This document shows, piece after piece, positions 3,113-18,528 of a stretch of 24,000 nt of DNA. A model generated the notes under the pieces. That model was given only the letters and a program-made list of their open reading frames with translations, did not search any database and was not told where the DNA came from. Positions within the stretch are counted from its first letter, which is position 1. The number at the start of each line of letters is the position of its first letter. Source of the stretch: Geobacter sp. (GTDB lineage: Bacteria; Desulfobacterota; Desulfuromonadia; Geobacterales; Geobacteraceae); assembly GCA_027356255.1 (NCBI GenBank), contig DAIEGL010000177.1:17405-41404 (forward strand), in the 5' to 3' direction. The translations under genes were made by a program, and so were the position numbers.

Positions 3113-3313
3113 CTGCGCTTGGCCTCGGCATGGAATGGCTAAAGAATTTTCTACCAGAAAACCGGGATGTTTGCCATGAAAAACTCGGGAGCCATTCGCA
3201 GTCCGGTCTGCTGTACCCGGCTGAAGATCAGCATTAATCAGCCTGTTTTTAATGGGAAAGCATACGTGATCCTGATAAGTACATGGTAAGCCAAATCTGC
3301 TCCAATACATCAG

Positions 3314-3487
3314 CTATTGGTCGATCCCGGACTTTTTTTTAAGCCAGTCCGACTCCATCTTCAACCGCCCGATCTCAGAATAAAGCCGCTCCGGGCTGGC
3401 TGACGGATCTTCGGGTTTCGGACCGCGCTTAGTCTCGAAAATGCTGGGCGCTTGAGAGAGGAGTTCTCGCTTCCATTCGCCCAGTCC
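3314..3487 (-). pseudogene. relic of an IS3-family transposase OrfA (C-terminal about 57 codons only)
   Basis: Minus-strand translation gives GLGEWKRELLSQAPSIFETKRGPKPEDPSASPERLYSEIGRLKMESDWLKKKSGIDQ*. This is the typical OrfA leucine-zipper tail (..LY..IG.L..E.DWLKKK). An in-frame TAA lies immediately upstream. An A8G run at the usual -1 frameshift position is retained, but no OrfB follows. Confidence 0.6.
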
Positions 3488-5359: not shown

Positions 5360-6469
5360 TTATTTACTTTTCAAAGCCTCTTCGACAACGCATCTGATGC
5401 CCTTCCCCTCAAGCGCTGGTTTGTAGCATAGATTGCACGATATGCAGGTTGCTTTTCGTTTATCACCAGATCTCCAACGCTGGACAAGATCAGGTTCGCG
5501 GACGAGAGGGCGAGACAAGGATACGTAATCGGTCAGCCTCTCTGTCACCAACATTTCAGCAACCGAGTAGGAGCGAATCCCGCCAACCAGTATCAGTGGC
5601 ACATTGATTTTATCCTTATAGTGCCTTGCAGCTTCGCGATAATAGACTTCATCCGCTTCATTATCCAAACGGCCTGGTCGGAAGGGGACAAATCGGCCAG
5701 AGTCTCTGTTTCCTCCACTTAATTCTATGGCATCGACTCCTGCTTTTTCGAGTGAGATCGCCACCTGAATCATCTCTTCCTTCGTGAAACCACCTTCCTG
5801 AAAATCTTCCGAATTGATCTTGATTAAGATCGGATACTCAGGGCCAACAGCCTGTCGAACGCTCTTCACCACTTCAAGCAGGATACGCGCACGATTTTCG
5901 AGTTCACCTCCATAGTCATCTTTTCTCCTGTTATGCGTAGGTGAGAGAAATTGACTGAGTAGATACCCGTGAGCTGCGTGGATTTGTATTGCATCGAAGC
6001 CCGCCTTTTGGGCTCTTGCTGCGCTCTCGGAAAAATCGGCTACTACCTTACGTATCTGCTCATGTGTCATTTCTCTGATGATCTGACCGGTCTCATTCTC
6101 ACCTGATGATGGGGCATAAACATCAAGTCCGGTAATTTCGGAGGCCGCATAGCAACCTGCATGGGATAGCTGCAGGGCGATCTTGCCGCAGTTGTCATGA
6201 ACACTTTTGACCATTTTTTCTAGTCCCGGGAGCAGGCTGTCGTTATCAGCTCCCAATTGCCGAAGCCTTGCCTGTCCTGCCTTGTTTACATAGGCATGGC
6301 CAGTAATAATCAATCCGACTTCTCCTTGAGCAAGCTTGCAAAAAAAGTCTGCCAGTTCTGGAGTGCAGGCTCCGCAATCATCAGCCATGCCTTCCCAGGT
6401 TGCAGATCTGATAAAGCGGTTTCCGAGGTTCAGACTTTTTATGTTGGTAGATTCAAACAGCTTAGCCAT
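5360..6469 (-). CDS. NADH:flavin oxidoreductase, Old Yellow Enzyme family
   Basis: The track ORF is 5360..6535. I start at MAKLFESTNIKSLNLGNRFIRSATWEGM, which has SD CAGGAG upstream. OYE hallmarks are present: HGYLLSQFLSPTHNRRKDDYGG, and a C-terminal Cys cluster CISCNLC. Confidence 0.8.
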   Translation of the reverse strand: MAKLFESTNIKSLNLGNRFIRSATWEGMADDCGACTPELADFFCKLAQGEVGLIITGHAYVNKAGQARLRQLGADNDSLLPGLEKMVKSVHDNCGKIALQLSHAGCYAASEITGLDVYAPSSGENETGQIIREMTHEQIRKVVADFSESAARAQKAGFDAIQIHAAHGYLLSQFLSPTHNRRKDDYGGELENRARILLEVVKSVRQAVGPEYPILIKINSEDFQEGGFTKEEMIQVAISLEKAGVDAIELSGGNRDSGRFVPFRPGRLDNEADEVYYREAARHYKDKINVPLILVGGIRSYSVAEMLVTERLTDYVSLSRPLVREPDLVQRWRSGDKRKATCISCNLCYKPALEGKGIRCVVEEALKSK

Positions 6470-10692: not shown

Positions 10693-11085
10693 TCAAATCA
10701 GCTCCTTGCTCCAGAATTGCATGGGGTGGTCCCGTTTGATGCCATCGGTCTCACGCCAGATGAAATGAGTGGTTACCCCGTGGAGTCGGACAAACTCGGT
10801 ACGGGCAAGGAATCTTGTGATGGGGATGTAGTCACGCGGGCGCAAGGGGTGATCGTCGGGCTGCTCAACCGTGGCGCAGGTGAGTCTGCGGTAGCGGCCG
10901 AGAGAACGGATGTTGCTTTCCAGTAGGGCAAGCAGCTTCCGGCCCAGTCCACAATTGCGGTAGGCCGGGCGAAAGAGCAGTTCCCCGACGTAATATGTCT
11001 CGTTGAGCGGAAATGTTGTCCCGGCAAAGGCGTCAAGCATCTGGGCGTCTTCATGGATAAGAGGCATGCCCGTACTCCCCGTCAA
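10693..11085 (-). pseudogene. GNAT family N-acetyltransferase, apparently 5'-damaged (frameshift and/or truncation at the island edge)
   Basis: The ORF carries the acetyl-CoA motif RNCGLGRKLL only about 45 residues from its start, so the N-terminal third of a GNAT fold is missing. Beta-strand-like sequence (TLVFIGSVAIGLTVYEMTEYVEVRHIDGEYG) continues upstream in another frame (track ORF 11051..11272). It then runs into the AT-rich island. Confidence 0.45.
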
Positions 11086-11249
11086 TATGTCGAACCTCCA
11101 CGTACTCGGTCATTTCGTAGACGGTGAGTCCTATGGCTACACTGCCGATGAACACCAAGGTAGGCCGTGACGGTGACCACAAGTAGGAATTGTGGTTGTC
11201 ACCCCTCGCTTTCTCTCGCTCATCAACCGTACGACGCCATAAGCACAGA

Positions 11250-11597
11250 ATGGAGCAGGACGAAATAAACAAAAAAATCTGTGCTCACCAGAGCGCCAAC
11301 CGAAATTATATTGATCAAGGTATCAGTGTACTAGAACTGGCGCAAAATGCTGCTGGACGGTATTCTATGGAAGAAGTGGCTAAAAAAAGAGAAATACTAA
11401 AATCAGTGCACTCGAACTCCACTTGGAAGGATGGGCAACTCGTGTCTGATTACAGGAAACCCTTTGACCAACTTGCACTTACGAGCCATGCCTATAGAAA
11501 GAAAAAGGTCGCTTTTCCTGAGAAAAGCGACCTTTGTACGTTTTGGCTCCCCAGCGCGGACGGTTCTGGGCACTGGGAAGAGCGCTTATCGCTGTAA
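11250..11597 (+). pseudogene. C-terminal fragment of a second (older) serine recombinase
   Basis: HQSANRNYIDQGISVLELAQNAAGRYSMEEVAKKREILKSVHSNSTWKDGQLVSDYRKPFDQLA resembles, from memory, the conserved C-terminal tail of one class of large serine recombinases. No catalytic or zinc-ribbon part is present. Like the intact recombinase, it reads W-L-P across TGGCTCCCC in the same frame. Confidence 0.45.
11544..11561 (-). repeat. degenerate copy of the tRNA-Asn 3' end (left island boundary repeat)
   Basis: TGGCTCCCCAGCGCGGAC versus TGGCTCCCCAACCCGGAC at 18453-18470: 16 of 18 nt match, in the same orientation. Confidence 0.6.
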
Positions 11598-11647
11598 CGG
11601 TTTGGCTTTGACCCGCCGGTTTTTGGGGCGGGTCGTAAGTGTTGGAA
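11592..11647 (-). repeat. attC-like folded recombination site C (56 bp)
   Basis: Minus strand: TTCCAAC-ACTTAC-GACCCGCC-CCAAAAACC-GGCGGGTC-AAAGCCAAACC-GTTACAG. It has an AAC-ending left box, a GTT-starting right box and a perfect 8-bp stem. It is alignable to sites A and B, with compensatory changes in the stem. Confidence 0.5.
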
Positions 11648-11728
11648 TTGACTTCTTTCCCAGTTTGATTACGGCTCGTAATTCTTTAATAGCAACATAG
11701 CGAGCAGCGTCCACCACCAGAGGACCCT

Positions 11729-12166
11729 TTATTCCAATCGGGTTACATTGATTGTACTACTGACTCCATCAACCTTGAGTTTGTAACTTCCGCCGGAAAT
11801 GTAGATTATTACTTTAGGTCGATAAGAATAATGGTAGGTGTATGCGTAAGACGACTGTTGCCAGATTTGGCCATTCACTAACCTGAAAATTGTTTCACCA
11901 CTCCAACCTTCAAATGAGCCGTCAATTTGGCTTTCAACTACCCCAGAGTTTACAGTGTTTGGTGCAGAATACGTTGATTGTGGTTCTGTATTTTCTTTCG
12001 TTCTACGCCGTAATTCGGGCTCTTTTTGTCTCACTTCGGTGGATGTTTCTCCAATGCATACAGCTTCTACGCTATCTCCATGGTCAATAATCTTACATTC
12101 TGAATAAGACAATTTTGTTGCCATAATTATTGGCATCGCTAGGCATACTGCTAATACAATTCTCAT
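11729..12166 (-). CDS. secreted hypothetical protein (signal peptide plus conserved-looking C-terminal beta domain)
   Basis: The track ORF is 11729..12310. I start at MRIVLAVCLAMPIIMATKL, a signal-like N-terminus. The C-terminus is IDGSFEGWSGETIFRLVNGQIWQQSSYAYTYHYSYRPKVIIYISGGSYKLKVDG. No family was assigned. Confidence 0.55.
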   Translation of the reverse strand: MRIVLAVCLAMPIIMATKLSYSECKIIDHGDSVEAVCIGETSTEVRQKEPELRRRTKENTEPQSTYSAPNTVNSGVVESQIDGSFEGWSGETIFRLVNGQIWQQSSYAYTYHYSYRPKVIIYISGGSYKLKVDGVSSTINVTRLE

Positions 12167-12246
12167 AATATTCCCCATTGAGTGATGAAGAGTAGTTCCG
12201 TCCCCCATATTTGAGCACTTCTTCAACCAATATCTGTTGCTTGACA

Positions 12247-12696
12247 CTATCCAGGAATAATTATGAAAGTGGCTGGATCTATGCCAAATGCCTGAAGCAT
12301 CCTTTGGCACCTGCGGTTTAGTTGTGCGGCATTTTCATTGGTGTCCACAATGATATCAGTTCCCTTTATTCTTTCGTATCTGTGTTTAAAATCAGAAACA
12401 GATTTAGAAAAGTACTTTTTTGTTCTCCCCTGAATCTGAAAAAGGTCATCCGCCTGACTGGGAAATTTTCTTATAATAAGATGCGTTAATTTTACAAATA
12501 CATCTTTATGTGATTCAGCTTCGTGCATCCTATTGTCAAAAATGAATCCAGACACACCTGTCCCAGTTAGTTCTCCTCTATTTTTACTGAGATCAATATT
12601 TATTTTAGATAGTAACGCCAGGGCTTTGGTCTGCTCCTCTGGTTCCATTTTTTGTAAGTTGATTCGTAGATCTTCAAATGTATTCTTGACGCTCAT
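12247..12696 (-). CDS. hypothetical protein (149 aa), first ORF of cassette C
   Basis: SD GGAGGG lies 4 nt before the ATG, and the start is 20 nt after the GTTGGAC box of site B. No recognisable motif. Confidence 0.6.
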   Translation of the reverse strand: MSVKNTFEDLRINLQKMEPEEQTKALALLSKINIDLSKNRGELTGTGVSGFIFDNRMHEAESHKDVFVKLTHLIIRKFPSQADDLFQIQGRTKKYFSKSVSDFKHRYERIKGTDIIVDTNENAAQLNRRCQRMLQAFGIDPATFIIIPG

Positions 12697-12716
12697 TTGT
12701 CCCTCCTGAAGTTATA

Positions 12717-12777
12717 GTCCAACGGGGCCGGCCTTCACCTGTCAGGTTTTAGGGCAGGTGAAAGGACGTGGTTATAC
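12717..12777 (-). repeat. attC-like folded recombination site B (61 bp)
   Basis: Minus strand: GTATAAC-CACGT-CCTTTCACCTG-CCCTAAAACCTGA-CAGGTGAAGG-CCGGCCCC-GTTGGAC. The stem is 10 bp with one extrahelical base. The right box fits GTTRRRY exactly. Confidence 0.6.
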
Positions 12778-12866
12778 CTCGCCGTTATTGCCGTTTGGTG
12801 TACTTCAATAGGTTGTCTATTTCTTTTACTATCAAGGAAGGGTTCGTATAAACGTCACCCTGACAA

Positions 12867-13154
12867 TCATTCGGCGGGTGAATGACCTATTTTTGTGAGC
12901 TTAATTTCTGGGGCAAACTCGTATCCAATTTCAGTATTGTCTGAAGCTAATTCAGCAATCCATCCATATTGTTTAAGCCAGTTCAAGAAGGCTTCCATGT
13001 TTAGTTTGTTGAGTCCAGACATTTTTTCATGTGGGCCGTTTGGAAAGGCATTAGATGCTTCGCTATAGTGGATCAAAAAAACAAACTTTTTCTCTTTGTC
13101 AGCTTCAACTAACGCTTTGCGGATAGCATCAATCCATTTTTGGCTGTCGGACAT
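12867..13154 (-). CDS. hypothetical protein (95 aa), second ORF of cassette B
   Basis: The track ORF extends to 13253, but the internal ATG 13154 has SD AAGGAG 7 nt upstream and avoids overlap with the previous ORF. Product: MSDSQKWIDAIRKALVEADKEKKFVFLIHYSE... No family was assigned. Confidence 0.5.
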   Translation of the reverse strand: MSDSQKWIDAIRKALVEADKEKKFVFLIHYSEASNAFPNGPHEKMSGLNKLNMEAFLNWLKQYGWIAELASDNTEIGYEFAPEIKLTKIGHSPAE

Positions 13155-13209
13155 TTTGTTTCTCCTTTTGGGTTTAATCCGGGCCTTAAACCCGAAAAGT
13201 TCTGTTAAT

Positions 13210-13401
13210 TTATTTTTTGTCCCGCAACTTTTCAGCGGCTTCGCGTTCTGCATCTTCTTCTGCTATCAGATCGTCAATCGTAGGAGGGTGTGATTTGTCC
13301 CATTCTTCGTTAAATTTAGCGTCTCTGTCATCTTCATTTCTTTTGTTTAAAAGATATGCGATGGCACATAAGGCAGCAAAAATTAACCATAATACGTTCA
13401 T
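13210..13401 (-). CDS. small membrane-anchored protein (63 aa) with an acidic tail, first ORF of cassette B
   Basis: SD AAGGAGG lies 7 nt before the ATG, and the start is 22 nt after the GTTATGC box of site A. It has an N-terminal TM segment (VLWLIFAALCAIAYLL) followed by a highly charged tail. Confidence 0.55.
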   Translation of the reverse strand: MNVLWLIFAALCAIAYLLNKRNEDDRDAKFNEEWDKSHPPTIDDLIAEEDAEREAAEKLRDKK

Positions 13402-13423
13402 ATCAAAACCTCCTTTATTGGGG

Positions 13424-13484
13424 GCATAACGTGGTGAGCCTTCACCTGCCGGTTTTCAGGGCAGGTGTAAGGCGTTGGTTATGT
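13424..13484 (-). repeat. attC-like folded recombination site A (61 bp)
   Basis: Minus strand: ACATAAC-CAACG-CCTTACACCTG-CCCTGAAAACCGG-CAGGTGAAGG-CTCACCAC-GTTATGC. CATAAC and GTTATG pair. The stem has one extrahelical base. The TAA stop of the 61-aa ORF lies inside the ACATAAC box. Confidence 0.6.
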
Positions 13485-13664
13485 ATTCGGTTTTTCTTTA
13501 CAAAATGCGCCAATAGTGAAAAGACCGAAAATAACCGCGCCAACAAGACTAAAAATTTTTCCTAAAGTGAGTTGAGAAAAAGGAACGCTGAAAATACCTT
13601 CTGGGTAGAGAAAATAAGCTATTGTTCCAAAAACAGCGGCAAAAACAATCCTAGCATATATCAT
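13479..13664 (-). CDS. small two-TM membrane protein (61 aa)
   Basis: SD GAGGG lies 5 nt before the ATG. There are two hydrophobic helices (IVFAAVFGTIAYFLY; IFSLVGAVIFGLFTIGAF). Confidence 0.5.
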   Translation of the reverse strand: MIYARIVFAAVFGTIAYFLYPEGIFSVPFSQLTLGKIFSLVGAVIFGLFTIGAFCKEKPNT

Positions 13665-13764
13665 GATTACCCTCGCTTATTAGACACTTGATATTTTGCT
13701 TATTTATCGTGAAGGAAAGTCATTTACTTTTAACGGAGGTTCGCTGGTTATGAATCGAGATAAT

Positions 13765-14109
13765 CTAATGCATTACTTTCTGGGGTGTTGGCTCGTTTTG
13801 GCGACTTTTATTATATGCGGGGTCGGCTACCACTTGATTCACGGCTGGATTAGAGAAATGGGATGGCTCCCTCTGAGTAAATTCTTTGTACGCAAGGTAA
13901 AGAGTCAAGATAAGGATGGCAGCGGTCATGGCTAACATCCAATTGTCAGACCTTCCCTTTCTTCTATGTAACTCAACTTCGGCTTCATGTCTTTCCAGGC
14001 CGTTATAATTACCACCGTCAGGAGGTATTCCGTCAATGATGCGAAGTAACTGCTTATCTTCCAGCTTTCTGAAGTGTTTTGTACTTTTGATAACCTCTTC
14101 ACGTTCCAC
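13765..14109 (-). CDS. hypothetical single-TM protein (114 aa, GTG start), first ORF of cassette A
   Basis: GAGG lies 5 nt upstream of the GTG, and the start is 21 nt after the GTTATGT box. It has a soluble N-terminus, a TM segment (WMLAMTAAILILTLYLAY), then a tail. Competing ORFs exist in other frames or on the other strand (13932..14120 minus, 13696..13935 plus), so frame choice is uncertain. Confidence 0.35.
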   Translation of the reverse strand: MEREEVIKSTKHFRKLEDKQLLRIIDGIPPDGGNYNGLERHEAEVELHRRKGRSDNWMLAMTAAILILTLYLAYKEFTQREPSHFSNPAVNQVVADPAYNKSRQNEPTPQKVMH

Positions 14110-14130
14110 ATATGCCTCATTTCTTTAATT

Positions 14131-14137
14131 ACATAAC
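14131..14137 (-). other. array-proximal GTTATGT box (candidate attI-type crossover point)
   Basis: Minus-strand GTTATGT is the exact complement (7 of 7) of the ACATAAC left box of site A, which lies 647 bp downstream. No hairpin precedes it. Confidence 0.4.
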
Positions 14138-14263
14138 TCGTAATTGATCAGACCCGGCCATCATCCCACCAAATCTGATTCTTCTGCATTAGTACTAAAA
14201 CACAATTGACGTAACCATCTAAATTTATTATAAACACCATATCAATAAATATTCCAATTTGAG

Positions 14264-14285
14264 TGTTGGCCGTTACTGGCCAACA
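14264..14285. repeat. perfect 8-6-8 dyad TGTTGGCC-GTTACT-GGCCAACA (candidate tyrosine-recombinase core-type site)
   Basis: 8-bp perfect inverted arms around a 6-bp spacer, lying in non-coding DNA between the recombinase gene and the first cassette. The arms contain GTTGG/CCAAC, the same pentamer as the boxes of sites B and C. Confidence 0.35.
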
Positions 14286-14468
14286 TACCGGATGTTTTCA
14301 GTCCTGAACTTTTATCGACTAAATGGTTGTCTTCAAGTTCAATCTGTGTAGGCTAATATTCATTAGCCCGCAATATAATTCAGCGTAGAACAAATGTCAA
14401 AGGAGATAACATGCTTCTAATCCCAAATGCGGTGTTTATCCGGTATATTACGCATCTCAGTTCACGTA

Positions 14469-14502
14469 ATGTTGCTACAGACCGTTAATAGATGTTGCTA
14501 CA
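14469..14502. repeat. two direct copies of ATGTTGCTACA, 23 nt apart start to start
   Basis: Exact 11-mers at 14469-14479 and 14492-14502, immediately next to the recombinase terminator. They could be protein-binding (arm-type or DR-type) sites. Confidence 0.35.
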
Positions 14503-14503
14503 C

Positions 14504-14555
14504 AAAAAAAAGGGGCTTGTCCGTCGTTGCCAAAGGCAGCGGCGGACAAGCCCCT
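14504..14555 (-). terminator. Rho-independent terminator of the tyrosine recombinase gene
   Basis: Perfect 13-bp stem AGGGGCTTGTCCG / CGGACAAGCCCCT. On the minus strand it is followed by a T run of 7-8. It starts 12 nt after the stop codon. Confidence 0.8.
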
Positions 14556-14566
14556 CTTCACATTGT

Positions 14567-15376
14567 TTACTTGTAGTGCTGGGTTACGCTCTCCCGGCTA
14601 TGGCCGAGATACTCTGCGATTTCTTTATCAGGTTTACCTTCCCTGTCCCGCTGTTGAGCGGCTTCGTGCCTATACAAGTGGAGATTCGCCATATTCTCTT
14701 TAGTAGCTCCTGCGCGATTGAGCTCGTTTGAAAATTTTTTGAGACCCTGTTTAAGCGATAGGTTGGAAGGAATCAGCGATTTCTGTCCATTGTCCTTAAT
14801 ATATTGCAGGACTTTTTGCACTAAATCTTTTTGATCCTGTCTTTCAATGGGAACATCACGAGGCCGACCGCCCTTTGCTCCCGCAACGACTATCCGCTCT
14901 TGCCCGTCTTTAACTATGACTAGGTTTGAAAGAAGAGCTTCTTCTCTGCGTAGACCAAACCCTTTTGCCATGTCACATGCTAGCCCCAGCCATTCATCCT
15001 TTGCATAGAGCTTGTCTCGGGCGTCAGTCATTTTATCGAGGTCACCATGTTTTGGTTGGTACCTGTCTGACCGGTCAATCCCAAGGTCAATGTTATGACG
15101 TGGTACTATGTTGTCTTTGCCGATGGCGTGGGCAATTTCGCGCATTGCTGTCATGTAATTAGACCTTGTGCTCGCCGATAAATTATCATTTTCAAGTTTC
15201 TCAATAAATCGCTCCACATGCTTTGTTTTCATGTCGCGTATTGACTGCAGCCCCTGCGTTGACATGAAATCAGCAATACGTCCGATATTGCCAACCAGTT
15301 TCTGCGTAGTTCCTGAACCCTTGCCATAGTTTTTACCGACCAATCGCTTTGCCTCATTTCCCAGTTTACTGCTCAT
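14567..15376 (-). CDS. tyrosine recombinase/integrase (short, non-IntI type)
   Basis: I start at MSSKLGNEAK, with SD AAAGGAG upstream. Catalytic signature in order: GLRREEA (Arg), KGGRPRDVPI (Lys hairpin), HLYRHEAA (H-x-x-R), LGHSRESVTQHYK (His...Tyr). The protein ends one residue after the Tyr. Confidence 0.8.
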   Translation of the reverse strand: MSSKLGNEAKRLVGKNYGKGSGTTQKLVGNIGRIADFMSTQGLQSIRDMKTKHVERFIEKLENDNLSASTRSNYMTAMREIAHAIGKDNIVPRHNIDLGIDRSDRYQPKHGDLDKMTDARDKLYAKDEWLGLACDMAKGFGLRREEALLSNLVIVKDGQERIVVAGAKGGRPRDVPIERQDQKDLVQKVLQYIKDNGQKSLIPSNLSLKQGLKKFSNELNRAGATKENMANLHLYRHEAAQQRDREGKPDKEIAEYLGHSRESVTQHYK

Positions 15377-15429
15377 AGTTGTTCTCCTTTCCTGTTGTAG
15401 TGTGCCAAAAGGGTTGAGTGAATTTGCCA

Positions 15430-15446
15430 CACAGCTTATAGCTGTG
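15430..15446. promoter_or_regulatory. palindrome CACAGCT-TAT-AGCTGTG upstream of the tyrosine recombinase gene
   Basis: 7-bp perfect arms, 54-70 nt upstream of the ATG at 15376. Possibly an operator. Confidence 0.3.
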
Positions 15447-15631
15447 CCCTTAGGCGACTCTGATCCGTAAATCAGACGCCCTTCGGTTCCTCAATTTTTT
15501 TCCGAACCCGCAGGTTTGGTCCTTGGTCTCAACCAAGAAATCGAGGAGGCATACTGCCGTATCCTTAGTGGAAGACGGAGACGGCACATGACACAGGAGG
15601 GATGTAATGAGTGGTTTTGGGGAGAGGTGCG

Positions 15632-15768
15632 ACGCGATGAGAAAAATCCGTCTCCTCGACGGATATTTCTCATCGCGTGTGAACGCCCGCTGGGCGGGCG
15701 GCGGCCGGCCAGCCGTCTCTTTCTCATTGCTTCGCGTTTGAAAAAGAGACGGCTGGCGAAAGGCGTTC
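15632..15768. other. cluster of long, GC-rich hairpins (candidate structured RNA or DNA site), unassigned
   Basis: Stem 1: 15632-15652 pairs with 15658-15678, 21 bp with one mismatch, loop TCCTC. Stem 2: 15708-15722 pairs with 15743-15757, 15 bp perfect, 20-nt loop. Stem 2 is enclosed by GAACGCC (15681-15687) / GGCGTTC (15762-15768). The 7-mer GAGACGG/CCGTCTC occurs four times. Confidence 0.5.
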
Positions 15769-16371
15769 GAAGGAAATTGCTTTGTTGACCGAACGTGGAG
15801 GGATTTATGGTAATGGCTGCACCGTGATCTCGATGGATGTATAGATGACGAGATGAATTGGTGTGAGCTCTAATGTTGGTAGGAGATGTGTCTTACGACA
15901 CAGTTGAACCTTAAAGCGGGGATACTGATAGTTTTACTGACATGGCGGCAAAGGTTGTCTGGAATGCGTAGGCATGGTCAGAAGGTTAATTTGCTGGATC
16001 AGCATTCTGGATGTTTTTGAGTGTTGTTACTTAAGGAAACAAAGATTGATGAAGTGGGCTCTCGTGGTGGGTACTTGCTGATGTGGCGCAAGATCAAGGA
16101 CAAGAGTCACTACTGGAAAAAAAGTGAATACATCGTCCGATGCTATATGCAGGCGACTGGACGGGGTGTCGCTTGCAGCTTTGACCAACTATGGAGTTGG
16201 ACTGAAAATCCTTGGAGGAAATAATATGTGCTAAGTATCTACCAAAAATAAAATACTTTCAAGAGAAAAATAAGTAGAAGAGCTTTTGATACGTCCCATA
16301 AACAAATTATATATTGTTTTTATATTCGACAATAGAATTTATAAGTAACTATGATAGCACTAAAGTAATAT

Positions 16372-16407
16372 GATTCAAGAAATACCAAATTTGGTATTTC
16401 TTGAATC
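16372..16407. repeat. perfect 36-bp palindrome in a very AT-rich stretch
   Basis: GATTCAAGAAATACCAAA|TTTGGTATTTCTTGAATC, 18 + 18 nt with no mismatch. A second imperfect hairpin (AGGTTGTA-A7-TACAAACCT) follows. Confidence 0.9.
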
Positions 16408-16526
16408 TGTATAGGTTGTAAAAAAATACAAACCTTTAAAGAAATATACATTATCATTAAATAGTAAAGGTTGCCGGCCTGCACAAGAGTCATCGTTAGA
16501 TTTAATAACCTTGACTAGGTGTGCAA

Positions 16527-16817
16527 ATGAGTAATAAGATTTATAGCAATAGACACTATGATCTATGCCACAGTAGCTTCAGAAAATATGATAATTCGTG
16601 TGACAAGATATTCAGCAGACAGAACTCTTGTAAGGATTGCCAAGGCAAGTACAGGTTAATCACTTCCCGATTTGAGGGTTTGGACAATAATGTATTCGCG
16701 AAGGAGCTTGACTTAATTGAGGCTTTCTTGCCCGAATTACTCGATATTCTTTCAAAGACAACTGTTGACGTGGAAGCACCGGGAAATCAAAATCACCGAG
16801 ACCAGCGGGAAAAATGA
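16527..16817 (+). CDS. hypothetical Cys-rich small protein upstream of the serine recombinase
   Basis: 96 aa from the ATG. The N-terminal half has C-x11-C...C-x2-C spacing (possible zinc ribbon) and the C-terminal half is acidic and helical (ELDLIEAFLPELLDIL). The SD is weak. It is co-directional with the recombinase and 63 nt upstream of it. Any role, for example as a directionality factor, is speculation. Confidence 0.35.
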   Translation: MSNKIYSNRHYDLCHSSFRKYDNSCDKIFSRQNSCKDCQGKYRLITSRFEGLDNNVFAKELDLIEAFLPELLDILSKTTVDVEAPGNQNHRDQREK

Positions 16818-16880
16818 AGAGTATCACATGCTCTGATTGTAGGATTGATCCGCTAGTAAGAAGGGAACAGGAGTTAAAAC

Positions 16881-18494
16881 ATGGCAGTAGCGCTCTATGC
16901 ACGTGTTTCAACGGCGAAACAACATGAACGGGATCTGTCTATTCCTGATCAGATCAGGCAGATGCGCGATTGGTGCAAACAAAATGGTTATTTGATTGCA
17001 ACCGAATATGTTGAGCAAGGGCTTTCGGCCACTAATGATCGTCGGCCAGAGTTCCAGCAGATGATTGCAGAAGCTTGTACCAAGCCCTCCCCATTCGAGG
17101 CCATCGTAGTTCATAGTCTCTCACGGTTTTTTCGTGATCAATTAGAGCTGGGCCTGTATGAGAGACAATTGAAAAAGTACGGCGTAAAACTCATTTCTAT
17201 TACGCAGATAACTTCTGATGATGCTGCCGGTGAGATGATGCGGCAAATCCTAAGTATGTTTGACGGTTATCAAAGCAAGGAAAATGCGAAACATACTATG
17301 CGAGCCATGAAAGAAAATGCTCGCCAAGGCTTTTTTAACGGATCAAAACCTCCTTTCGGTTATAAGGTGGTTGAAGCTGATATGCCTGCGAGGAATGGAA
17401 ACAAGAAACGGCTCGAAATTGAGCCGACTGAAGCAGAAGTCGTAAAGAATATCTTTGCCCTGTATCTTGGTAAAGTAGGGAAAAGCTATGGAATCAAGGG
17501 AATCGCGTCTCATCTGAATTCGCTTGGGATGACCGCAAGGGGGAGACGCTGGGCTCGTGGTTACATTAACAAGATTCTTTCCAATACCGCCTATATCGGC
17601 GAATATTATTTTAATAAAACCAATGCAAAAAGCAGGAAAGGCAAGCCTGAGACGGAATGGGTTCTTGTTAAAGTTCCTGAAGTCATTGATAAAGAAACAT
17701 TCGAAAATGCTCGGGAACGAAGAGAGGAGCGGCAACCTTCAAAGAAAAATCCTGCACAGGAGTCATCACCGACTCTATTGACAGGTCTACTCAAGTGCGG
17801 GGAGTGTGGCGCAGGAATGACCCTCGCCACAGGCAAAAGCGGTCGCTACCGTTACTATAAATGTACGAACAGAATCAACAAGGGAAATGAACTCTGCAAA
17901 AGCAAAAATATACCAATGGATAAGCTTGATGAAATGATATTGAAGACAATTGGCGAGAAAATTTTTACCCCAGCTCGCGTACTTGCGATGATCAAAGAAT
18001 TGCAGAAACGGATGCAATTGTCTTTATCAAAAAATGACGATGCATTGAAAACTCTAAGGAAAGAGATGGAAGAGTTGAAGCTAAAGATGGATCGTCTATG
18101 TGAGGCACTTGAAAATGGCCTTTTACCCCAAGAGGTGATTCGTGACCGCTCGCAGAACCTTCAGGTAAGACGTCAGGCAATCCTTAAAGAAATGGCAGGA
18201 TTAAAGCGGCGGCAAGAATTGCCGTTCAAGGATTTGGGGCACCAAAAGGTTTACGATTTCTGTCAGGTGCTCAATGCAAAGCTTCATGACCCTGCATCTA
18301 ATTTTGGTAAAGAATACCTGAAAATGCTTGTGGAAGAAATTTGCGTTGAAGAGAAGGAGATTAAGCTGAAAGGGAAACTTACCGATATTGCAAGCGCTGT
18401 AAACAAAACGGCTCTGGGACTCACTATTGGAGTGCCCAGAGCCGGTAATGATTGGCTCCCCAACCCGGACTCGAACCAGGGACATGGTGGTTAA
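16881..18494 (+). CDS. large serine recombinase (resolvase catalytic domain, recombinase domain, zinc ribbon, coiled coil)
   Basis: SD AGGAG lies upstream. The N-terminus VALYARVSTAKQ carries the catalytic Ser. Other features: SLSRFFRD, GYQSKENAKHTMRAM, the zinc ribbon LKCGECGAGM...YYKC and a long coiled coil. The last 14 codons (18453-18494) are antisense to tRNA-Asn. Confidence 0.9.
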   Translation: MAVALYARVSTAKQHERDLSIPDQIRQMRDWCKQNGYLIATEYVEQGLSATNDRRPEFQQMIAEACTKPSPFEAIVVHSLSRFFRDQLELGLYERQLKKYGVKLISITQITSDDAAGEMMRQILSMFDGYQSKENAKHTMRAMKENARQGFFNGSKPPFGYKVVEADMPARNGNKKRLEIEPTEAEVVKNIFALYLGKVGKSYGIKGIASHLNSLGMTARGRRWARGYINKILSNTAYIGEYYFNKTNAKSRKGKPETEWVLVKVPEVIDKETFENARERREERQPSKKNPAQESSPTLLTGLLKCGECGAGMTLATGKSGRYRYYKCTNRINKGNELCKSKNIPMDKLDEMILKTIGEKIFTPARVLAMIKELQKRMQLSLSKNDDALKTLRKEMEELKLKMDRLCEALENGLLPQEVIRDRSQNLQVRRQAILKEMAGLKRRQELPFKDLGHQKVYDFCQVLNAKLHDPASNFGKEYLKMLVEEICVEEKEIKLKGKLTDIASAVNKTALGLTIGVPRAGNDWLPNPDSNQGHGG

Positions 18495-18528
18495 CAGCCA
18501 CCCGCTCTACCGACTGAGCTATTGGGGA
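18453..18528 (-). tRNA. tRNA-Asn (anticodon GTT), 76 nt with encoded CCA
   Basis: Hand-folded sequence: TCCCCAA-TA-GCTC-AGTCGGTA-GAGC-G-GGTGG-CTGTTAA-CCACC-ATGTC-CCTGG-TTCGAGT-CCGGG-TTGGGGA-G-CCA. All four stems pair, with one G-U in the T stem. Confidence 0.9.

Follow-up and report, generated by a model that had tools for sequence, protein, structure and literature searches.

A structured RNA not described previously lies directly upstream of a small tyrosine recombinase gene in a 24-kb stretch of a Geobacter sp. genome (GenBank contig DAIEGL010000177.1, forward-strand positions 17,405 to 41,404; the whole stretch is called the window here, with coordinates counted from its first nucleotide), and this leader is the new feature of the locus. 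The recombinase and its leader are located in a low-GC island of 6.9 kb (~11562-18452) integrated at the 3' end of a tRNA-Asn gene, which also carries three gene cassettes with attC-like sites. A strict linkage of the recombinase to the structured upstream element has been shown across its relatives, and the small recombinase is not systematically linked to attC sites. Taken together, the locus is best read, with a probability of roughly 0.6, as an island with an accessory tyrosine recombinase that has a structured leader, the cassettes having been inserted separately. An earlier note on this DNA, made from the letters alone, had considered that a new tyrosine recombinase lineage might service the attC-like sites.

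The relatives were collected by a protein search, which returned 43 homologues; contig look-ups and collection scans led to about 20 distinct loci with 34-71% identity, and those from named genomes belonged to Geobacter, Desulfuromonadales or Pseudodesulfovibrio. Out of 1.84 billion representative proteins, 57 clusters belonged to the Geobacter-type subfamily at E <= 1e-30. In an all-against-all comparison of open reading frames (ORFs), the recombinase was the only ORF common to all 27 loci, and the only other feature recurring with it was the upstream block, the pair being linked across 34-100% protein identity. At the DNA level, similarity between the window and the homologue loci (about 70% identity) reaches about 375-400 nt upstream of the start codon. 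In-frame upstream extensions of the ORF range between 0 and 135 aa in length and are missing from several loci, which implies that the upstream block is non-coding. The conserved partner of the gene, which the earlier note had overlooked, is therefore found upstream and not downstream of it.

An alignment of nine clade 1 leaders was folded with RNAalifold, which predicted 90 pairs, 38 of them with compensatory changes; five pairs involving the Shine-Dalgarno sequence (anti-SD pairs) were added, giving 95 pairs in 14 helices. For these 95 pairs, 91.2% of the cells in the alignment are paired, compared with 40-47% when the partners were slid by 1-3 columns, and changes on both sides were observed in 40 pairs; the slid controls reached 9-14 and shuffles 18 ± 2.5, with no shuffle out of 500 being as good. 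G-U cells outnumber A-C cells (67 vs 23), which favours the gene strand. Each homologue locus has the P1 pattern (GTCTCT..AGAGAC) once, at 280-400 nt ahead of the start codon, CACTCAAC is present family-wide 40-70 nt before the start codon, and the CCCTCC motif is also common across the family. Clade 1 was also used to build a covariance model of the 5' domain (P1-P3); run on loci outside its alignment, the model found the element at the expected place in L035, L036, L018 and L030 at 32-33 bits (E about 1e-6) and gave 17-19 bits in L021, L023 and L024; the sense strand outscored the antisense strand for most matches, including the four strongest, and nothing was found in three plasmid homologues or in control loci. 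With Rfam 15, only tRNA was matched at the gathering threshold and nothing in 15377-15790 at E <= 1, the single match in this region being a microRNA model over hairpin P3 (E = 2.6). In addition, no prior description was found in the literature searched on RNA-guided tyrosine recombinases, PF12835 or Geobacter RNA motifs near recombinases.

It has to be considered that the upstream block might act as DNA, either as a resolution site of the recombinase with accessory arms or as a folded single-strand site comparable to origin- or transfer-related hairpins. The stem of P1 is invariant in sequence, as a protein-binding site would be, resolution sites usually adjoin the recombinase gene (such as Tn3 res, P1 loxP/cre, and F rfsF/resD), and tyrosine recombinases can act on folded single strands (such as IntI/attC and XerCD/CTX). 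However, double-stranded binding sites would not explain the covariation of 14 helices of unrelated sequence, the arms of P1 are 4-20 nt apart with pairing that extends into this spacing, G-U exceeds A-C 3 to 1 on the gene strand, and the structure ends at the ribosome-binding site, all of which makes a DNA role unlikely.

Most likely, the leader would gate translation of the recombinase, with a C-rich motif that sequesters the ribosome-binding site. In the clade 2 consensus, all 7 sequences pair CUCC with GGAG of the ribosome-binding site, and the start-codon region is paired with CCCCA; in clade 1 the anti-SD helix (helix 4) pairs in 78% of cells. A more far-reaching alternative is that the leader RNA is an obligate working partner (scaffold or guide) of this recombinase subfamily, like the bridge RNA of IS110, in which case the enzyme would be an RNA-dependent tyrosine recombinase. 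The RNA and the gene are indeed the only universally linked pair, 14 helices together with invariant blocks (the P1 stem and CACUCAAC) are more than a simple leader needs, and the position 5' of the ORF mirrors that of IS110 bridge RNAs and IscB omega RNAs. On the other hand, a search of the flanking 8-10 kb in 20 loci revealed no recurring stretch of at least 12 nt complementary to the RNA, matches being at chance level, although short split guides (4-7 nt) would go unnoticed in such a search; the structure extends at its 3' end into the ribosome-binding site, and its anti-SD pairing points to control in cis; the recombinase is a plain two-domain protein; and no RNA-guided tyrosine recombinase is listed in a 2026 review of RNA-guided recombination. 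A role as obligate partner thus appears quite improbable.

Several additional observations concern the leader region. A further copy of GACCGTC, 4 nt downstream of the 3' strand of P1 (GACGGTC), is available for pairing with this strand in most clade 1 sequences (window 15700-15762, minus strand). Such pairing might give a mutually exclusive, switch-like alternative hairpin; L014 has no such copy, and that of the window is imperfect. A sigma-54 promoter reading of TGGCAC/TGGCGC near the start codon was dropped because clade 1 has no -12 element. An 8-nt match between the C-rich linker of the leader and the tRNA acceptor was not reproduced in L013 and was taken as a composition effect.

The recombinase gene starts with ATG, just 5' of which lies AAGGAG, and its product has the complete catalytic set (R143, K168, H233-x-x-R236, H259, and Y268), which is invariant in 19 homologues. 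These residues and the two-domain fold assign it to the tyrosine recombinase superfamily. The profile scores were all above cut-off (39 bits for PF00589, 38.6 for PF12835 with a cut-off of 23, and 34.0 for PF12834 with a cut-off of 22), both of the latter models exceeding the gathering score and placing the protein in the PF12834/PF12835 (Phage_int_SAM_2/Integrase_1) group. The earlier note had thus rightly seen a tyrosine recombinase with the full signature that is distinct from integron integrases (IntI), and the PF12835-type N-terminus that it named for profile searches agrees with the PF12834/PF12835 architecture.

No feature specific to IntI was detected in the recombinase. The integron integrase profile TIGR02249 gave 30.6 bits, aligned to residues 32-189 only and not better than the scores of Xer profiles, compared with a cut-off of 265, and the protein therefore falls below the IntI profile threshold (TIGR02249/PRK15417). 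The interval from K168 to H233 is 65 aa, somewhat longer than the approximately 50 aa estimated at first; it is Xer-like and, as had been argued, leaves no room for an IntI-type insertion. For comparison, the K-to-H interval is ~72 aa in XerD and ~106 aa in IntI1. Neither the interval length nor the AlphaFold2 model gave any sign of an IntI-specific segment between the catalytic Lys and HxxR, the model (predicted local distance difference test score of 91) being a plain two-domain tyrosine recombinase with no additional domain. Its top Foldseek matches were XerA, XerH, lambda Int, and Cre, with a probability of 1.0 to Xer, Cre, and lambda Int, and the integron integrase VchIntIA (2a3v) ranked ninth, below XerA, XerH, and lambda Int; a sequence comparison with the PDB gave archaeal XerA as the sole relative (E = 0.027). 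The gene layout is also not of the IntI type: the recombinase is located upstream of the cassettes in the same orientation, as originally described, with its own terminator (the strong one already noticed) and 430 bp in between, and no attI-like site is present. The recombinase is not an integron integrase; it is a conserved accessory gene in a family of Geobacter-type integrative elements.

The relationship between the recombinase and attC sites was analyzed with an attC covariance model built from the three window sites. In 324 kb of homologue loci, this model produced only two weak matches, one being a degenerate lone site in L020, 7.7 kb from a distant homologue, and the other an attC of the window family in L027 (27 bits); no attC array was found in about 19 full-length homologue loci. 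A generic scan of all loci for AAC...GTT hairpins returned scattered matches and no array, those right after recombinase genes being terminators. L027 (4288-7574, Geobacterales) contains a decayed true integron with a truncated IntI (140 bits with TIGR02249, covering positions 2-141 of the 315 in the model), a TIR-domain cassette, and attC, and about 200 bp past this attC lies a 35-aa fragment of a related recombinase gene (86% identity), beside an IS200-like gene. The attC sites of the window family belong to canonical IntI integrons in this bacterial group. The same locus also has a repeated ~34-bp stretch containing ACCATGGGGTCAGGCTTCCAAGTTGACAA, and four copies of (G/C)ATCTAATA(T/A)T occur at 5640-5720, between the truncated intI and the first cassette, which may be attI-type integrase-binding repeats or iterons.

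The 430-bp spacer between the recombinase gene and the first cassette, including its dyad and direct repeats, has no counterpart in any homologue locus, as homology stops just past the terminator. The exact 11-nt direct repeat in 23-nt register and the perfect 8-6-8 dyad with GTTGG/CCAAC arms like the cassette boxes were both correctly recognized in the earlier note; their proposed role as recombinase binding sites is not supported, as the spacer is not conserved. No further copy of the repeat ATGTTGCTACA was found in the window even with one mismatch, the expectation being 0.2 copies and two or more occurring in 1 of 100 shuffles, and the dyad has a fold z of -3.3 as single-stranded DNA. These elements are real, somewhat unlikely by chance, and confined to this locus; an operator function, a role as part of the island end, or use as the recombinase's own site would each be conceivable. 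A reading of the dyad as an attI-like or attC-like site was rejected because its boxes face outward (GTT...AAC), opposite to the geometry of attC and attI, and the spacer was also considered as a decayed gene, for which a blastx search against all ORFs of the related loci gave no match. The TATAAT at 14227-14232 (minus strand) that had been suggested to drive the cassettes is present; however, it was not picked up by a promoter scan, the best site being a sigma-70-like sequence farther upstream, which may transcribe the cassettes.

These data bear directly on the idea that the small recombinase itself recombines the attC-like hairpins, with the GTTATGT junction, the dyad or the repeats serving as an attI-like dock of a non-IntI integron. 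In favour of this idea, the recombinase gene is co-directional and 430 bp upstream of the first cassette, GTTGG/CCAAC is common to the dyad arms and the cassette boxes, no IntI is visible in the window, and a related recombinase fragment lies beyond the L027 attC. Nevertheless, the homologue loci have no attC array, the spacer and its motifs are not conserved, the dyad boxes point the wrong way, the direct repeats are 330 nt from the junction and inverted relative to the repeats of attI1, L027 has its own truncated IntI, and the enzyme lacks any IntI-specific feature. Across genomes, the homologues essentially do not neighbour attC-like repeats, an outcome named in the earlier note as speaking against the idea, and a new lineage of enzymes acting on such sites is therefore extremely improbable.

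According to the preferred reading, the cassettes have a separate origin. Sites A-C consist of R'' (..AAC) and R' (GTT..) boxes and an imperfect stem with one bulged base and a 9-nt loop, and three such attC sites with their genes suggest ordinary integron cassettes, the array looking like a one-off insertion. The three minus-strand sites are spaced by 707 and 1126 nt, which is within the limit (<4 kb) for attC clusters that have no integron integrase (CALINs). No IntI was found in the 24-kb window (Pfam analysis of large ORFs and tblastn with the L027 IntI fragment), and an IntI gene or pseudogene was also absent from ~10 kb past the left end of the window, as seen on a related contig; the array thus has no integron integrase gene or pseudogene nearby, as is typical of CALINs. 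Upstream of the GTTATGT box, the adjacent 70 nt show no folding (z = -0.27) and contain no inverted box partner, implying that this box has no attC partner upstream. The box is read as an insertion junction: the cassettes would have been inserted by an IntI acting in trans at a G/TT site that is not an attC (slash, junction), the reconstructed insertion target being ...CGAG/TTACAGCG... and the junction expected in a cassette-free island ...CAATTACGAG/TTACAGCGATAAG... IntI-catalysed insertion at GWT sites in genomes has been shown experimentally and proposed as the origin of small attC clusters (bioRxiv 10.1101/2022.09.11.507474), and integrase-less attC clusters are common, 95% of them without a nearby intI pseudogene (PMC4889954).

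Alternatively, the array might be the leftover of a complete integron that was once located here and lost its intI, for example on arrival of the island. Loss of the integrase can yield attC clusters without integrase (PMC4889954), and such integron decay is seen in the related genome of L027; however, the terminal repeats of the island lie on either side of the array, no remnant of IntI was detected in the window, and neither attI-like boxes nor a fold occur upstream of the first box. This scenario is considered very unlikely.

With regard to cassette content (11729-14109), each cassette seemingly carries two small ORFs (114 + 61, 63 + 95/128, and 149 + 172 aa), none with a Pfam match. Homologues of the 149-aa protein (51-85% identity) are widespread in Geobacter-type genomes, including Citrifermentans bremense, and sit in regions rich in small ORFs and toxin-antitoxin genes. 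In these regions, no attC was found by the three-site model and no IntI nearby, which is uninformative on the origin of the cassette.

The island itself has the properties of an integrative element of the large serine recombinase type, including a three-domain protein at its edge, att-type repeats, and a drop in GC content from 55-64% in the flanks to about 40-45% at ~11.5-18.5 kb. The last 19 nt of tRNA-Asn are duplicated at the left end (17/19 identical), and 14-nt terminal inverted repeats are found directly inside both tRNA copies. The 3' end of the large serine recombinase gene overlaps the 3' end of tRNA-Asn, and the order on the minus strand from tRNA-Asn is the serine recombinase, a gap of 1.1 kb, the upstream block with the tyrosine recombinase, the 430-bp spacer, and the three cassettes. 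The serine recombinase is probably the integrase, which would integrate and excise the island, and the small tyrosine recombinase probably resolves or maintains an excised, circular or replicating form of the element, because PF12834/PF12835 relatives occur on small plasmids and related islands (clade 2) have primase- or replication-type neighbours. The fallback offered in the earlier note, that the enzyme is simply the integrase or resolvase of the island, comes closer to the evidence, except that the integrase is the serine recombinase and the tyrosine enzyme is accessory.

All homologue loci with enough flank have their own integrase near the element end, which is of the arm-binding tyrosine type, or a large serine recombinase in L013. 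In the closest clade, the recombinase is preceded by a tRNA-side integrase (Arm-DNA-bind_2), a small Xis-like gene, and a variable gap of 1-1.9 kb, and followed by a convergent helix-turn-helix gene, small ORFs, an HNH gene, and variable defence cargo, whereas in the second clade the recombinase is followed by a DUF5659 gene and a Toprim-DUF3987 primase-type gene, with an Arm-DNA-bind_3 integrase on its upstream side in L021 and L024. Relatives with 26-34% identity are present on 178 plasmid records, one of them on a 4.4-kb plasmid otherwise annotated with only a replication gene and two small ORFs. Among L001-L006, loci that encode an identical recombinase protein (P0003, and likewise those with P0004) differ in their cargo beyond about +3.1 kb (type I restriction-modification, BREX, HerA-like, and metallophosphatase genes), which points to a cargo or defence hotspot past the recombinase in these islands.

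Some other features were detected in and around the island. Just outside the left repeat (11190-11594, plus strand, extending to 11597) is what remains of another large serine recombinase gene, encoding the C-terminal part (~135 aa); this relic is 39-50% identical to ORFs in L035 and L014 and ends on the displaced 3' remnant of tRNA-Asn, indicating that successive islands have used the same tRNA-Asn, and the serine recombinase of L013 ends on the identical 19-mer. A GNAT acetyltransferase gene (10693-11085, minus strand) beside the left end seems truncated or split (130 + 57 aa), perhaps through damage when earlier islands inserted. The gap that separates the serine recombinase from the leader contains a perfect 36-bp palindrome, GATTCAAGAAATACCAAA/TTTGGTATTTCTTGAATC (16372-16407), with promoter-like sites beside it (16326-16355, plus strand; 16378-16351, minus strand) and a weak sub-threshold Rfam match to psRNA14 (31.8 bits vs 60); it may be an operator or a bidirectional terminator. 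A remnant of an IS3-family OrfA (...LYSEIGRLKMESDWLKKKSG...) was observed at 3310-3481, intergenic after a major facilitator superfamily transporter gene and 92% identical to an IS copy in L032. The coordinates of the main features are listed in Table 1.

Table 1. Main features of the island in the window and copies of the leader in related loci (coordinates refer to the window unless a locus is named).
Feature	Position	Strand	Basis or remark
Conserved structured leader, ~380 nt, from hairpin P1 to the recombinase ribosome-binding site	15377-15782	minus	Candidate new RNA motif
Hairpin P1, invariant stem CGUCUCUU/AAGAGACG, variable tip	15708-15757	minus	
Hairpin P3	15632-15678	minus	Inverted repeat; helix 3
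CCCUCC motif	15596-15601	minus	Predicted pairing with ribosome-binding site AGGAG (15384-15388)
CACUCAAC motif, nearly invariant	15413-15420	minus	40-70 nt before start codon
Leader copy	L001 9582-9999		
Leader copy	L005 9592-9999		
Leader copy	L012 2385-2787		
Leader copy	L013 4103-4568		
Leader copy	L014 9915-10273		
Leader copy	L015 6932-7349		
Leader copy	L017 7582-7999		
Leader copy	L029 2662-3052		
Diverged leader versions	L018-L024, L030, L035, L036		
Small tyrosine recombinase, 269 aa (PF12834 + PF12835 + PF00589)	14567-15376	minus	ORF, Pfam, catalytic residues
Intrinsic terminator of recombinase gene	14508-14558	minus	24-nt arms, 88% complementary, then T-run
Two exact copies of ATGTTGCTACA, 23-nt register	14469-14479, 14492-14502	plus	Unique to window locus
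Best sigma-70-like site in spacer, TTGACA-17-TATATT, facing cassettes	14400-14372	minus	11/12 consensus match only
Perfect 8-6-8 dyad TGTTGGCC-GTTACT-GGCCAACA	14264-14285		Unique in window
GTTATGT box, start of first cassette	14131-14137	minus	
attC-like site A	13424-13484	minus	DNA fold z = -4.7
attC-like site B	12717-12777	minus	DNA fold z = -2.4
attC-like site C, last of array, 17 nt from island terminal inverted repeat	11592-11650	minus	DNA fold z = -2.4
Island left end: 17/19 copy of tRNA-Asn 3' end, then terminal inverted repeat	11543-11561, 11561-11574		Repeat search
Large serine recombinase, 537 aa (Resolvase + Recombinase + Zn-ribbon; CcrB/XisF-like)	16881-18494	plus	Pfam domains
Island right end: inverted repeat and tRNA-Asn	18431-18444, 18453-18528	minus	tRNA match, repeat search

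Several points weigh against this interpretation of the locus. The translational control proposed for the leader is based on predicted pairing, and the dyad and direct repeat are statistically unusual features for which this reading does not account. In the window island no replication gene can be recognised, so that a resolvase role is less convincing for this copy. As for the cassettes, no IntI was found in the roughly 35 kb of the same genome visible around the island; the attC model was derived from three sites only and could miss other attC families, the generic hairpin scan likewise giving no arrays; and the recombinase fragment 200 bp from the L027 attC is a second co-occurrence of the two for which this reading does not account.

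Had there been a second lineage of attC-recombining enzymes, the view of integrons would have changed; this claim fails, and an experimental detour is spared. What emerges is that a recombinase subfamily in several classes of integrative islands is inherited together with a large, covariation-supported RNA outside Rfam, an RNA-recombinase module that is worth experiment. At least, the leader would be a new class of cis-regulatory RNA controlling a recombinase in mobile elements; at most, if the partner hypothesis were true, it would be an RNA cofactor for a recombinase class so far considered protein-only, and the enzyme the first RNA-dependent tyrosine recombinase. Moreover, integron cassettes inside a tRNA-targeting island could be moved by this island between genomes, and their insertion fits the recently demonstrated route via genomic GWT sites.

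Comparison with known systems shows both similarities and differences. Like IntI with its attI and attC sites, the window enzyme is an RKHRHY tyrosine recombinase whose gene adjoins co-oriented promoterless cassettes with attC-type hairpins; in contrast to IntI, it scores 30.6 vs 265 bits, has the Xer-like 65-aa K-to-H interval, is encoded co-directionally and not divergently, has no attI-like simple site, and has homologues that are not linked to attC. The array resembles CALINs and single attC sites lacking integron integrases (SALINs), which arise from IntI insertion at genomic attG, in having three attC sites on the same strand, 0.7-1.1 kb apart, no intI in 24 kb, and a first cassette that begins at a lone G/TT box without upstream attC; it differs in being within a tRNA-targeting serine recombinase island, 17 nt from the terminal repeat, and the responsible IntI was not seen. 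The leader RNA shares with IS110 bridge RNAs and IscB omega RNAs its large size, its conserved structure and its position directly 5' of the ORF, together with which it is inherited as one unit, whereas the window enzyme is a tyrosine recombinase, no guide-like complementarity was found for its leader, and this leader appears to sequester the ribosome-binding site of its own gene. Both Pfam domains of the window recombinase are shared with the PF12834/PF12835 "Integrase_1" enzymes of plasmids and islands (annotated as "phage integrase N-terminal domain-containing protein"), which are often the sole recombinase on small plasmids; the structured leader is carried by the Geobacter-type subfamily, and its motifs are absent in the three plasmid homologues examined. 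Finally, the island agrees with CcrB/XisF-like serine recombinase islands at tRNA genes in its 537-aa Resolvase-Recombinase-Zn-ribbon protein at the edge over the tRNA 3' end, its terminal inverted repeats, and the relic of an earlier copy, and is distinguished from them by a second, tyrosine-type recombinase with an RNA leader.

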